Shown here: piece after piece, positions 40,465-43,716 of the stretch
Position numbering within the stretch: position 1 is the stretch's first letter
Layout: every line of letters begins with the position of its first letter
Origin: Bacilli bacterium
GTDB taxonomy: Bacteria; Bacillota_I; Bacilli_A; RFN20; CAG-826
NCBI GenBank assembly: GCA_900767605.1
Contig: CAAFZT010000010.1
Span: forward strand, 171 to 64,170
Direction: 5' to 3'
Length of the DNA: 64,000 nt
Position numbers and translations under genes: made by a program
The notes under the pieces: generated by a model
Database searches by the model: none
Told to the model about the DNA's origin: nothing
What the model saw: only the letters and a program-made list of their open reading frames with translations

Positions 40465-40740
40465 TCAGGATGTATGGGCGGAAATCGTCTTCTTTTCCAG
40501 GGATTCCATGTCGTTGTTTTGAATCATGAATTGTTCTGCTTTTCGAAAGTCGATTGTCGCCTTTAAAAAATCCAGGCACTGCACTGGTAATCCTAAGTAG
40601 ACATTTGTACCAGGAAAAGTGCACGCCGGGATGCGACTGTCGAAAGGAGAACTTCTTGATGAACCAACAGCAAAAACTTCTCGTTAGAAAGCAACTTCGC
40701 CCTCAAGAACCACTTTGTAAGGTGCAAAAAAGTTTGCGGT
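40465..40740 (-). pseudogene. decayed toxN paralogue (C-terminal third only)
   Basis: DNA at 40517-40576 parallels 41231-41289. The translation gives PGF.KATIDFRKAEQFMIQNNDMESLEKK, plus LLSNE...H upstream, only after at least 2 frame changes. Confidence 0.65.
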
Positions 40741-40757
40741 TCCTTTTACTTTCCGTG

Positions 40758-41090
40758 TTATTCGTCAGCCTTGCCGGAAACGTCTTTCAGGTAATAGCCA
40801 CCTGTCTTTTTTGATCCTCTGAGCTCAATATAATTTTTCAGTTCTCTTTTTATCGAGTTCCTGATCATCTCAATCGTTATCTTTTCGCCACCTTCCGAAA
40901 GGATTTCATATATTCTGCCGGCCTTTATCCCAGGGTTGCTCTCCACCGTCCTTATGATGGACAATCCAAGCTTGCTTATTTGGTCATTTATTTGGTCATT
41001 GTAGTTGAGGCTAGGAAAATACACGATGAAGAAGTTCTCGCTGTCGCAAAATACGGAATCCCTGCCAGCGCCCTTATAAGCATTAGGACT
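40758..41090 (-). pseudogene. truncated C-terminal wHTH fragment of a larger regulator/ATPase
   Basis: The frame is open to 41090 but has no ATG or SD. ...NPGIKAGRIYEIL...ELRGSKKTGGYYLK looks like the tail of AlbA_2/HATPase_c_4-type proteins. Confidence 0.4.
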
Positions 41091-41172
41091 CTAGGTACCC
41101 AGTCTCGTAATTCTCCGTAAGGTGACAAAGTAATCGGCGCCCCACATTTAATGAAAAGAGTCCCCTTTTTTC

Positions 41173-41778
41173 TTACTTCAGGACGAAGGATTGCAGTTTG
41201 TTTTTCTCTATAAGCGTCTCGCCGTCGTAGTTCTGAATCATAAATTCTTCCACCTTTTTAAAATCGACGGTTGCCTTTAAAAATCCAGGTACTTTTCTTC
41301 CGGACCAATAAGTCCGATTCTTTTCATTGATTTTGTATCGATAAACCCAATTTGCCTTTTTTACGATGAAGTCTTTGTGTTCATCAATCCATCGAGCCTC
41401 ATTTGACAGAAGCTGCCCGTAATTGTTGCCTTCTGGGTCTGAGAGGCGGGTGTATTTGCTTAAAGAAATCTCTTGGATTTGACTTAGTGGGACTGGAATC
41501 ATGTTGTTAAGCAAAACTTTTCCTAAAAATGTTCCATTTTGGTGAACCATTCGAAGGATTGTTTGGGTGGATGGCTTCAGTTTGCCATCTTCCCCATAAT
41601 CTCTAGGGTCCTTTGAAGAGAGGGGAAGGAAGTAGTGAAAGGGTTCGATAAAGACAAGAAAACCAACATAGGGACGGTTGTGTTTTCGGTCATTTTCGTG
41701 ATTGGACAAAACCCTGTGATCGATGGCGGAAAGTCGCGAAATGTATTCGTCGGACACGGAAAAAAGATGAATGCTCAT
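41173..41778 (-). CDS. toxN: ToxN/AbiQ-family type III toxin (endoribonuclease)
   Basis: 201 aa with an AAGGAG SD. LFSVSDEYISRLSAIDHRV, RPYVGFLVFIEPFHYFLPLSSKD and LLNNMIPVP align with ToxN/AbiQ. A repeat array and terminator lie immediately upstream. Confidence 0.85.
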   Translation of the reverse strand: MSIHLFSVSDEYISRLSAIDHRVLSNHENDRKHNRPYVGFLVFIEPFHYFLPLSSKDPRDYGEDGKLKPSTQTILRMVHQNGTFLGKVLLNNMIPVPLSQIQEISLSKYTRLSDPEGNNYGQLLSNEARWIDEHKDFIVKKANWVYRYKINEKNRTYWSGRKVPGFLKATVDFKKVEEFMIQNYDGETLIEKNKLQSFVLK

Positions 41779-41800
41779 ACCTTGAATGGCTCCTTTCAGG

Positions 41801-41853
41801 CAAAAAGAAAAGCGGGGATATGCAATTCTCTTAAGATGATGATATTTCCCCGC
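41801..41853 (-). terminator. terminator between the antitoxin array and toxN
   Basis: In RNA sense, a GCGGGGA...UCCCCGC stem is followed by UUUUCUUUUU. Confidence 0.65.
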
Positions 41854-41855
41854 TT

Positions 41856-41933
41856 GATTTTAAAGCTCCGCACTATGTGGCAGCGGCCGTCCAAGATTTT
41901 AAAGCTCCGCACTATGTGGCAGCGGCCGTCCAA
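41856..41933 (-). ncRNA. toxI: proximal type III antitoxin array, 2 x 39 nt identical units
   Basis: gattttaaagctccgcactatgtggcagcggccgtccaa occurs twice head-to-tail on the plus strand. The array is on the same strand as toxN and upstream of it. Confidence 0.75.
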
Positions 41934-41960
41934 GATTTTGCAAGTTTCCTTGCGACTTCT

Positions 41961-41988
41961 ATTTTAGAGCATTTCTCCCTATCGTCAA
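41961..41988 (-). promoter_or_regulatory. promoter of the proximal array
   Basis: Minus strand TTGACG-16 nt-TAAAAT, followed by a GCAAG-GAAA-CTTGC leader hairpin (41934-41960). Confidence 0.6.
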
Positions 41989-42030
41989 TACCCCCTGGCG
42001 AAAAATTTTTGCTCACGGTTTTATCGAAAA

Positions 42031-42072
42031 AAGAAAAGCGGGGGATCATCACCCTTTTTAGAGGACGTCCCC
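42031..42072 (-). terminator. degenerate copy of the array terminator module
   Basis: Shares aaaagaaaagcgggg(g)a with 41804-41818. Only a 5-bp stem remains, followed by a U-tract. Confidence 0.35.
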
Positions 42073-42076
42073 ACCT

Positions 42077-42190
42077 GATTTTAAAGCTCCGCTTTGTACG
42101 GCGACGGATACCGAGATTTTAAAGCTCCACATTGTACGGCGGTGGATGCCGGGATTTTAAAACTCCGATTTATACGGCGACGGATACCGA
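42077..42190 (-). ncRNA. distal antitoxin-like array, 3 x 38 nt diverged units
   Basis: The units span 42077-42114, 42115-42152 and 42153-42190. They share the gattttaaa(g/a)ctcc end with the proximal units, but the remainder differs. Confidence 0.7.
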
Positions 42191-42217
42191 GATTTTGCAA
42201 GTTTCCTTGCGCTTTCT

Positions 42218-42245
42218 ATTTTATGGCGGTTTTTCTTATCGTCAA
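42218..42245 (-). promoter_or_regulatory. promoter of the distal array
   Basis: Minus strand TTGACG-16 nt-TAAAAT, with the same leader hairpin as the proximal module. Confidence 0.6.
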
Positions 42246-42289
42246 TAGTCCTAAGCAAAAACTGTCATTATGACGTTATTTGTTTCCGG

Positions 42290-42772
42290 TTAATTCCACC
42301 ACTCCACGCGGACTTCGTCAAAATAAGCGCGGACTTTCGGGGAAGGATCCACGTAGATTTCCCTCATGTGGTCCATTACATCTTCGGGAACCCATTTCTC
42401 CTTGGGACGCATCTTGTTTTGCTTATAGCAGAGCGAATAATCGTGCATCTTTACCATGAACAGAATGGCTTTGTCATAACCATGAATCCGCTTCATGTAA
42501 TATTCCCGACGATAATCATCGAGAAAGATAGAATCTTCAATGACCGTGCATTCTTGGCCTTCGTAGGCCTTAAAGATTTCGTTGGTTTCGCGAATCATCT
42601 CGTCGAAGATGATTTCCATTTTCGGTGGGAACACCAAATAGGACCCCATGATTTTCTTTCTCGTTTCATCGGTATCGACGATGAAAACGTTCGGGTGTTC
42701 CTTTTGGTATTTTTTGCACCAAGTGGATTTCCCTGACCCCGGGATTCCCGCCATTAAAATTAACGTATGCAT
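42290..42772 (-). CDS. P-loop kinase-like ATPase (AAA_33/zeta-like fold)
   Basis: Has ILMAGIPGSGKST (Walker A). It is 160 aa and lies 5 nt downstream of the last permease gene. Confidence 0.65.
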   Translation of the reverse strand: MHTLILMAGIPGSGKSTWCKKYQKEHPNVFIVDTDETRKKIMGSYLVFPPKMEIIFDEMIRETNEIFKAYEGQECTVIEDSIFLDDYRREYYMKRIHGYDKAILFMVKMHDYSLCYKQNKMRPKEKWVPEDVMDHMREIYVDPSPKVRAYFDEVRVEWWN

Positions 42773-42777
42773 AGGAA

Positions 42778-43716
42778 TTAAACGAGTTTTTTACGGAGAT
42801 AGGAGGAGAGCAAGTTGATGCCAACAACCAAAATCACGATGCCGAAGATACAGGCTCCTAAAGCATGGTAATGGGTGCTTTGGATGGAGAGGTAATAACC
42901 AATTCCACCTTCTAGGCCAAGGACAACGCCTAAAATGGTCGCGGTACGGATATTGATGTCGAAGCGATATAAGGCAACCGATAGTAGACCCGGTAAAGCC
43001 TGGGGCATAACGGCAAGGTGGATGGCCTGCCATTTGGAGGCACCACCGCTATAAATGCCCTCCAAGGGTCCCATCTCAATCCCATCGATTTGATCGGCGT
43101 AGAGTTTGCCAATCATCCCAATCGAATGGATGCCGATGACTAAGACGCCGGAAAGGAAGGAGTAGCCGGAGAAGCGGATTAATAAAATCGCGAATACGAG
43201 TTCGGGGAAGGTGCGGATGACGATGAGGATAATCTCGCTGATCCACGCCCATTTGCCGAATAGCTTATGGGAAGCTAGTAACCCAAAGGGAATCGCGATT
43301 AACGAAGCGATGAAGGTTCCGATATAGGCGATTCCAAACGTCTTGATGATCATGTAGATAACCGATTCGGTGAATTCGTATTCCCCAAACCCGAAGAAGA
43401 TTTGCCAGAAGGTGGGATGGCTTAAATCAAATAGCATCCCAATGCTTTTGAATCCCTCGCCAAAATTGCCCCCGATGTTGGAGAGGTAATAATTCATGTC
43501 CAAATCAAAATGGACGTAGGTCAGAGCGCAGAGCAAAGCAAAACCGAATAGGATCAAGAGAATCCAGTTCTGTGGGCGTCTCGCGTAAGCTTCGTCCGTG
43601 GATTCATAATGCTTGGGCTTTTTTAAAGAAACCTCGTCAATAATCATCATGACGATGGCTAGAACTAAGAAGATGAGTCCCGTATAACCGGATATAGATT
43701 TAAAGATATCGTTCAT
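42778..43716 (-). CDS. phnE: phosphonate-type ABC transporter permease
   Basis: Polytopic membrane protein whose C-terminal half is typical of PhnE (...ALYRFDINIRTATILGVVLG..GGIG). An ATGA overlap links it to the upstream gene. Confidence 0.75.
   Translation of the reverse strand: MNDIFKSISGYTGLIFLVLAIVMMIIDEVSLKKPKHYESTDEAYARRPQNWILLILFGFALLCALTYVHFDLDMNYYLSNIGGNFGEGFKSIGMLFDLSHPTFWQIFFGFGEYEFTESVIYMIIKTFGIAYIGTFIASLIAIPFGLLASHKLFGKWAWISEIILIVIRTFPELVFAILLIRFSGYSFLSGVLVIGIHSIGMIGKLYADQIDGIEMGPLEGIYSGGASKWQAIHLAVMPQALPGLLSVALYRFDINIRTATILGVVLGLEGGIGYYLSIQSTHYHALGACIFGIVILVVGINLLSSYLRKKLV

Follow-up and report, generated by a model that had tools for sequence, protein, structure and literature searches.

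A putative chromosomal ToxIN-family locus with a duplicated modular antitoxin gene in uncultured human-gut Bacilli

In ToxIN-family toxin-antitoxin (TA) systems, which are of type III, a constitutive promoter drives transcription of an array of antitoxin repeats, and a terminator limits read-through into the toxin gene, toxN, so that the antitoxin RNA, ToxI, is in excess (PMC8860590, PMC5086642). The precursor is cut by ToxN between adenines at AA/AU, GAA/AU or AAA/AA sites (PMC8860590), and the processed pseudoknot bridges two ToxN molecules and blocks the active site (PMC8860590, PMC5086642). Recognition of the ToxI tails by ToxN is base-specific (PMC8860590) and ToxI RNAs are highly toxin-specific (PMC5086642). 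The locus described here lies in a 64-kb stretch of contig CAAFZT010000010.1 (the window, to which all coordinates refer), and all of its ToxIN elements are on the minus strand. Judged from its sequence features, it is probably a chromosomal ToxIN-family type III TA locus, of the abortive-infection kind, from uncultured human-gut Bacilli labelled 'Mollicutes', in which the modular antitoxin gene is present twice; the probability that this is correct is put at roughly 0.7.

The closest match to the toxin is that of ToxIN_Bt from Bacillus thuringiensis pAW63 (PDB entry 4ATO; 31% identity, phmmer 9.5e-16, Foldseek 1.5e-11), where ToxI has 2.9 copies of a 34 nt unit. Both systems have the same order of promoter, tandem repeats, terminator and toxN. 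Reading of the Bt-type unit (plasmids pP05_2-d and pMC183) finds the same order of H-type pseudoknot stems as in the units described here, with stem 1 at nt 2–5/14–17 and stem 2 at nt 10–12/22–24, a CCGUAG motif at the corresponding position and a 3' tail rich in A; MAFFT gave no structural alignment of the Bt unit. ToxIN_Bt differs in being plasmid-borne rather than chromosomal and in having one promoter and one array within a 253-nt intergenic region. The Bt units are shorter, at 34 nt against the 38 or 39 nt here, and have an AAAAAA tail with a reported cut site of AAA/AA (PMC8860590), whereas the unit boundary here is UAAAAUC. ToxIN_Bt also lacks a GNRA-hairpin leader, since its first cut site comes from a partial repeat.

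The same toxin fold is present in ToxIN_Pa of Pectobacterium atrosepticum pECA1039 (2xd0, Foldseek 5.3e-08) and ToxIN_Ec of E. coli (7d8o, 3.0e-08). In these systems too a processed pseudoknot RNA blocks the nuclease, and their AA/AU and GAA/AU sites fit the AAAAU boundary seen here. However, their toxins are 21–24% identical to this one and they have a single array (36 nt x 5.5 in Pa) with no second antitoxin module. AbiQ/antiQ of Lactococcus lactis shares the fold (4glk, TM 0.67–0.80) and has just one array upstream (about 36 nt x 3), but this is plasmid-borne and homogeneous, under a single promoter. The number of antiQ repeats modulates phage resistance in a way that is independent of toxin neutralisation (PMC5086642), suggesting a role for antitoxin dosage. 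In tenpIN loci the repeats of a single type III antitoxin are non-identical and vary by up to 35% (PMC12283969). These loci resemble the distal array of this locus in their heterogeneous repeats but have a TenpN toxin and one array under one promoter. In the open-access papers searched, no precedent was found for a type III system that has several antitoxin arrays, or an orphan or second one. Likewise, two to three full modules per toxin, heterotypic pseudoknots, a hairpin leader and the shuffling of modules and alleles are undescribed in the open-access surveys and reviews searched, while the components are textbook ToxIN.

Two complete modules, each of promoter, leader, array and terminator, precede the single toxN of the window (Table 1), in place of the canonical layout of one promoter, one array, one terminator and one toxin. 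The departure from canonical ToxIN is therefore in the architecture, not in the components. When the two modules are aligned end to end, 77% of the columns are identical, and the promoter hexamers, the leader, the 3' ends of the units and the base of the terminator are kept. A first-pass annotation, made from the letters of the stretch alone, had proposed these arrays, promoters and leaders and the toxin on the minus strand, and each was found in its place by Tandem Repeats Finder (TRF), promoter scan, folding and Pfam. The order of promoter, repeats, terminator and toxN that it claimed matches the canonical type III layout (PMC8860590). Its proposal that the module had been duplicated and had diverged holds in so far as the alignment shows the whole module to be present twice, but is too simple, since relatives show module recombination and toxN allele exchange, and the unit type that it called distal is the toxN-adjacent type of a sister toxN allele. 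The most likely reading of the sequence data is of a canonical ToxIN with an additional stand-alone antitoxin RNA gene, in a locus that evolves through the exchange of modules and toxN alleles.

Table 1. Features of the locus in the window, with part coordinates re-read from the sequence.
Feature	Position	Strand	Evidence or detail
Distal promoter, sigma-70 type, TTGACG-16-TAAAAT	42218..42245	-	10/12 match to consensus
Distal leader, GCAAG-GAAA-CUUGC hairpin (42197-42210) and AAAAUC (42191-42196)	42191..42217	-	
Distal toxI array, three non-identical 38-nt D-type units (D1 42153-42190, D2 42115-42152, D3 42077-42114)	42077..42190	-	TRF
Distal intrinsic terminator, hairpin (42037-42075) and U-tract	42025..42075	-	Predicted; -19.1 kcal/mol, then UUUCUUUUUU
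Proximal promoter, sigma-70 type, TTGACG-16-TAAAAT	41961..41988	-	10/12 match to consensus
Proximal leader, GCAAG-GAAA-CUUGC hairpin (41940-41953) and AAAAUC (41934-41939)	41934..41960	-	
Proximal toxI array, two identical 39-nt P-type units (41895-41933, 41856-41894)	41856..41933	-	TRF
Proximal intrinsic terminator, hairpin (41810-41855) and U-tract	41799..41855	-	Predicted; -15.4 kcal/mol, then UUCUUUUU
Shine-Dalgarno sequence AAAGGAG, 11 nt before the ATG	41790..41796	-	Read from the sequence
toxN, 201-aa ToxN/AbiQ-family endoribonuclease toxin, allele A	41173..41778	-	Pfam, PADLOC, PDB search, AlphaFold2/Foldseek
Variable DNA, about 590 nt between toxN and the remnant, with an 88-aa open reading frame (40758-41024)	40577..41163	-	Locus comparison
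toxN remnant, last ~36 codons of an older divergent copy (…FLKATIDFRKAEQFMIQNNDMESLEKKTISAHTS*)	40465..40575	-	tblastn

The identification of the 201-aa protein as a member of the ToxN/AbiQ family, proposed in the first-pass annotation, is one on which Pfam, PADLOC, the PDB sequence search and the predicted fold agree. Its sole significant Pfam match is to PF13958 (ToxN_toxin), at 106.5 bits against a cutoff of 25 and across profile positions 3–156 of 159, and its best match in the defence library is the PADLOC AbiQ model (4.7e-33). The phmmer search of PDB sequences gave, after ToxN_Bt, AbiQ (4GLK, 9.4e-09), with weaker matches to the E. coli and Pectobacterium ToxN (7D8O and 2XD0). The AlphaFold2 model has a mean per-residue confidence (pLDDT) of 85.6 and a predicted template modelling score (pTM) of 0.85. 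The four solved ToxN/AbiQ proteins (4ato, 7d8o, 2xd0 and 4glk) are the top four Foldseek matches to this model in the PDB, each with probability 1.00 and target-normalised TM of 0.73–0.80. Membership of the CptN or TenpN families was rejected, as the CptN structure 4rmo reaches just E = 1e-2 with a query-normalised TM of 0.45 and there is no other significant Pfam family. An invariant Tyr37 and a PLSS motif are in the N-terminal half of the protein, which, going by the known family, is presumed to be the catalytic region.

The two TTGACG-16-TAAAAT sites are the best two predicted promoters of the region in a consensus scan. Starting 7 nt past each -10, the two leaders have an identical 20-mer, GCAAGGAAACUUGCAAAAUC. 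The leader hairpin has a 5-bp stem and a GAAA loop of the GNRA type (-6.9 kcal/mol, z = -3.7). AAAAUC ends every leader and is present at every unit boundary in all modules of all loci, the units ending UAAAAUC. Both terminators are long GC-clamped hairpins that follow their arrays. The distal terminator had been described as degenerate, yet at -19.1 kcal/mol it folds more stably than the proximal hairpin (-15.4 kcal/mol) and is followed by its U-tract, and it is therefore seen as intact. The proximal terminator was missed by a simple terminator scanner, because its loop exceeds 8 nt. About 25 nt separate this terminator from the start codon of toxN and these contain no promoter, which means that toxN would be transcribed only by read-through of the proximal terminator.

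TRF reports the proximal array as 2.2 copies of period 39 at 41856–41939 with a 100% match, ending 77 nt before the ATG, and the distal array as 3.2 copies of period 38 at 42077–42196 with an 81% match. The P and D units had been thought to share only a 14-nt 3' part. They are in fact 66% identical over their full length, with one indel, the same stem layout and 3' tails in common. Inspection shows that an H-type pseudoknot is possible in every unit, leaving a 12-nt single-stranded 3' tail that ends UAAAAUC. Stem 1 pairs nt 2–4(5) with 14–16 (13–16 in the 38-nt class) and stem 2 pairs nt 9–12 with 24–27 (8–11 with 23–26 in the 38-nt class).

Support for these stems was counted on gap-free alignments of 13 distinct 38-nt units and 9 distinct 39-nt units from related genomes; the 22 units were split by length because a joint MAFFT alignment put the D-type gap inside stem 1. 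For the 38-nt class, 96.2% of cells are paired and three pairs have changed on both sides, which was reached by 7 of 500 shuffles, while the covariation score was reached by none of 500. Sliding the 3' partners reduced pairing to 25–61%. In the 39-nt class, made up of P and outgroup units, 100% of cells are paired and two pairs have changed on both sides, with 29–57% paired in the slid controls. Independent compensations include CGG/CCG to UGG/CCA between P and the outgroup, a G-C pair turned into A-U in stem 1 of a single L015 unit (locus handles of the form L015 are used where loci must be told apart), and CCGC/GCGG to CCAC/GUGG in both length classes. The earlier suggestion of structural selection on the distal RNAs is supported by the pair at nt 5/nt 13, where 8 distinct units have U-G and 5 have C-G, and by three further pairs that changed on both sides. 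A comparison of covariance and fold, which had also been proposed, found that both unit types fit one H-type pseudoknot with compensatory changes in both stems. The support for one pseudoknot fold in both unit types is thus good but not overwhelming, since this is a small data set of related sequences. Nested minimum free energies of single units have z of about 0 and are uninformative, because the algorithm cannot represent a pseudoknot. No sense-strand family was found at E <= 10 in an Rfam 15 scan of 40500–43000, the two matches both being chance ones on the opposite strand.

The exact ToxN and relatives at 50–99% identity are found in human-gut metagenomes and in metagenome-assembled genomes (MAGs) labelled uncultured Bacilli or Mollicutes. 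Loci were gathered from NCBI MAGs, ENA, Logan and JGI, and the region upstream of toxN was parsed in each. Within the clade of the window, which takes in ToxN proteins of 88% identity or more, both modules recur in unchanged order and with the same 141-nt inter-module junction in 13 other assemblies (L001, L007, L008, with L033 being the same contig, L018–L021, L030, L034, L039, L042, L043 and L047). Only the copy numbers differ between these, with 1–3 D units and 1–3 P units, and the order D1-D2-D3 is kept in 8 other assemblies. Short-read contigs very often end inside the proximal array (L003–L006, L016, L017, L022–L025 and L044–L046). Relatives at 51–56% ToxN identity (L009–L013, L036 and L040) have one module, with a similar promoter, 39-nt units and a homologous leader hairpin in which GCAAG/CUUGC has become GUAAG/CUUAC, a change to both sides of the pair; some have one extra G-C pair. 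The reference loci, on B. thuringiensis pAW63-type plasmids, a Lactococcus AbiQ-type plasmid and the Fusobacterium phage phiFN37, each carry a single promoter and array and lack the hairpin leader. The single module is therefore the ancestral, canonical state, and its multiplication appears specific to this lineage.

The distal module looks as constrained as the proximal one. Across 11 non-redundant assemblies, nucleotide diversity (pi) at third codon positions is 0.058 in the neighbouring kinase gene and 0.069 in toxN, while in elements that are just 6–39 nt long it is 0 in both leaders, 0.0096 in the first D unit and 0.013 in the P units. The -35 and -10 hexamers of both modules are invariant in these assemblies and the promoter spacers vary. 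When L042 and L015 are added, all hexamers are kept with the exception of the distal -10 of L042, which is TAAAAG. The distal hexamers are conserved in 13 of 14 assemblies. In L015 all three modules keep the hexamers and the leader, although the flanks are about 8% diverged.

In this locus, L015 (GCA_029219325.1, JAQXTE010000035.1, 1712–2500), ToxN is 74% identical to that of the window and is here called allele B, and the gene is preceded by three modules, these being in order a D-like array of three units, a P-type array of two units identical to those of the window, and a D-type array of two units adjoining toxN-B. The three-module arrangement is known from this one assembly. Flanks and the first two modules of L015 are collinear with the window at 92.8% nucleotide identity and the downstream genes are at 91.5%, whereas toxN and the module in front of it are only 75.6% identical, which points to replacement of a cassette with the P array left behind. 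Module 3 of L015 combines a P-like promoter and terminator with D-type units, and the terminator of module 2 looks like a P/D chimera. No detectable homology and no toxN remnant were found in the extra spacer of about 100 nt in L015.

Allele B, at 74–76% identity, has D-type units adjoining toxN in all three of its loci (L015, L017 and L046), of which only L015 is assembled through all modules, the L017 and L046 contigs ending in the array. The P type adjoins toxN in every allele-A locus, and the adjacent unit type therefore co-varies with the toxN allele. The 52 positions at which alleles A and B differ are concentrated in residues 99–153, and the N-terminal halves of the two are nearly identical. 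There is also direct evidence of an earlier replacement in the window itself, where a toxN remnant lies downstream of the live gene. The remnant has 18/28 identities to ToxN residues 166–193 (tblastn, E = 8e-9) and 79% nucleotide identity to the 3' end of the live toxN, and it occupies the place of the toxN 3' end in strains without the insert. Taken together, the sequences compared indicate that the locus evolves by module recombination and toxN allele replacement.

In the mechanism proposed, each module would be a self-contained small-RNA gene with a strong promoter of the sigma-70 type, a leader, one to three pseudoknot units and an intrinsic terminator. The GNRA-hairpin leader, about 7 nt past the -10, is probably at the 5' end of the transcript, where its AAAAUC tail would be the first ToxN cut site, the hairpin leader replacing the usual partial repeat as the donor of that site. 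By analogy with 5' stem-loops in Firmicutes, the hairpin probably also stabilises the 5' end. As in the ToxIN systems of Pectobacterium, E. coli and B. thuringiensis, ToxN would then cut each (A)AA/AU boundary inside UAAAAUC to give pseudoknots of 38 or 39 nt that stay bound and block the active site. The UAAAAUC boundary is compatible with the known AA/AU-type sites, and the proximal module has everything that this mechanism needs at the level of sequence. Since toxN is expected to be transcribed only by read-through, the proximal P-type array would be its co-transcribed cognate antitoxin. The distal array is behind two terminators and would therefore add antitoxin without toxin message, supplying a second pseudoknot isoform with the same single-stranded tails and a different core.

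It is most likely that the D-type RNA also binds the resident ToxN-A. The shared tails and fold of the units and the near-identical N-terminal halves of the alleles make inhibition of ToxN-A by D plausible. For the strain of the window, neutralisation of the resident ToxN by D is slightly favoured over a role for D as an orphan or immunity RNA of allele B. Several observations weigh against the reading of the distal module as an additional working antitoxin gene of this locus. D might not bind ToxN-A, given the toxin-specificity of ToxI RNAs (PMC5086642) and the different core, and its place beside ToxN-B in each of the three allele-B loci agrees with D being the antitoxin of the other toxin. 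The D units vary in sequence, stem 2 ends in a U-U mismatch in D1, and the distal -10 is weakened in L042. L002 (GCA_037412675.1, JAYAKT010000072.1, 1–75), with an identical ToxN, has unrelated sequence at its contig end where the distal terminator is expected, and either the strain has no distal module or the assembly breaks there; no toxN remnant is present in the odd stretch upstream of its proximal promoter. The repeat copy numbers are soft, coming from short reads, and the same outgroup locus has been assembled with 3 units (L036) and with 1 (L010). Copy numbers of type III antitoxin repeats in MAGs should not be trusted. The shortness of the elements in the diversity comparison and the small number of distinct units (22) behind the pseudoknot also belong on this side.

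The best surviving alternative, which is possible but remains the less probable explanation, is that the distal D module is the antitoxin of the ToxN-B allele circulating in the same lineage and does not inhibit the resident ToxN-A. D would then persist either because a former toxIN-B cassette left it behind or because it protects against incoming ToxN-B, in the role of an anti-addiction or immunity gene. It would also allow toxN alleles to swap without cell death, and the P module stranded upstream in L015 would be of the same kind. The co-variation of the toxN-adjacent unit type with the allele fits this explanation, as do the cassette replacement in L015 with its P array left behind, the mosaic parts of L015 modules 2 and 3, and the earlier replacement marked by the toxN 3' remnant in the window. 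So do the selectivity of known ToxI-ToxN pairs (PMC5086642) and the restriction of the A/B differences mainly to residues 99–153. However, the co-variation could be mere linkage, with only one allele-B locus assembled through all modules, and cross-inhibition is plausible as D and P share their tails and A and B have near-identical N-terminal halves. Nor was a second toxN found in the 64-kb window, where the 3' remnant was the only other toxN sequence, and the spacers contain no remnant of toxN by which a former tandem toxIN-B could be proved.

A broader form of this explanation draws on protein systems. Orphan immunity genes near polymorphic toxin loci and chromosomal anti-addiction antitoxins are protein antidotes against toxin alleles that the adjacent DNA does not encode, or has ceased to encode. 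The likeness to the locus described here is in the extra antidotes and the displacement of cassettes; the difference is that the candidate antidotes here would be small RNA genes. It is conceivable, though more doubtful still, that the locus is an RNA analogue of polymorphic toxin/immunity islands, in which the fast-evolving toxN alleles, with their hypervariable loop, give way to one another through recombination in the conserved leader and terminator and the stand-alone toxI modules are retained immunity RNAs for other ToxN alleles present in the species, with D cognate to ToxN-B. If so, immunity RNAs would make allele replacement survivable and would protect against related ToxIN systems arriving on mobile elements.

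That the distal module is a second toxI copy in decay, no longer functional but not yet lost, is improbable. The non-identity of the D units (81% TRF match) beside the identical P units, the U-U mismatch of D1, the apparent absence of the module from L002, the weakened -10 of L042 and the mismatched base of the D terminator in some strains could all be seen as decay. Against this, the promoter hexamers and leader are invariant, the L042 -10 aside, while synonymous sites differ by about 6%. There are compensatory changes between D units in both stems, the terminator is thermodynamically intact, and the three-unit order is conserved in 8 other assemblies. In addition, D-type units with the same U-U mismatch form the toxN-adjacent array in allele-B loci.

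That the tandem modules are an assembly artefact joining two allelic toxI variants from mixed strains is very hard to credit, for although many short-read contigs break in the proximal array and copy numbers differ between near-identical loci, the unique 141-nt junction from distal terminator to proximal promoter is present in 13 other assemblies from different studies and assemblers, exact identity between the modules is at most ~21 nt and so far below the assembler k-mers suggested by the contig names (k119, k127), and it is copy number that varies, not module order.

With the additional stand-alone antitoxin gene as the preferred reading, the locus is a surprising elaboration of ToxIN rather than a new kind of system. 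Both the definition of type III TA systems and the searches for them assume one promoter, one array, one terminator and one toxin, and ToxI-ToxN pairs are deemed highly specific. Here both ToxI-ToxN specificity and antitoxin dosage become directly testable, as two alleles differing mainly in residues 99–153 and at least three pseudoknot variants with common tails form a natural series for RNA-toxin specificity. It may be the first example of RNA antitoxins that are orphans, or else of an antitoxin dosage that does not depend on toxin transcription, and so bears on the threshold at which abortive infection is triggered. If the second module is merely a redundant duplication, then this is a minor architectural variant. 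In either case annotation pipelines should be warned that extra arrays exist, as do arrays in which a hairpin leader stands in for the partial repeat.

Broken copies of toxN are found in three relatives. L043 (2501–2971) has a nonsense codon at position 157 and L047 (2501–3001) has a frameshift near codon 141, both modules being intact in each. In L014 (3001–3590) the distal module and the proximal promoter are lost and toxN is multiply broken. These natural knock-outs show the order of events that is expected for a toxin-antitoxin pair.

The variable DNA of about 590 nt between toxN and the remnant is present in L001–L005, partial in L007 and L017, and absent from L008, L018, L015 and L046. 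The protein of its 88-aa open reading frame has a sub-threshold match to the winged-helix Pfam family DUF2582 (E = 0.019) and could be a small regulator that travelled with a toxN cassette.

Phage-borne copies or mimics of the locus were not found among viral contigs at the stringency of a leader probe, which gave three matches, all in unrelated sequence without arrays. Among phage records the sole ToxN relative found is that of Fusobacterium phage phiFN37, which shows 32% identity and has one array.

A P-loop kinase gene of the AAA_33 family (160 aa, 42290–42772, minus strand) is directly upstream of the arrays in every locus of the clade, between phosphonate-type ABC transporter genes and toxI. 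The kinase has weak matches to KTI12 and Zeta-toxin and sub-threshold PSTK-like and adenylyl-sulfate-kinase-like matches, and an NCBIfam search of the neighbouring genes gave nothing usable. The products of ToxN cleavage carry 5'-OH ends, and a nucleic-acid kinase next door is therefore intriguing. The adjacency may be coincidental, since the outgroup loci do not show the kinase directly upstream of the arrays.

At codon positions 1 and 2, toxN has a pi of 0.033 against 0.006 in the kinase gene and is thus evolving about five times faster. ToxN residues ~101–122 are hypervariable between alleles, the most variable stretch (~105–120) being a low-confidence loop of the model that precedes a long helix. 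The fast evolution of toxN could reflect diversifying selection, for example by phage inhibitors or for RNA specificity, or relaxed constraint.

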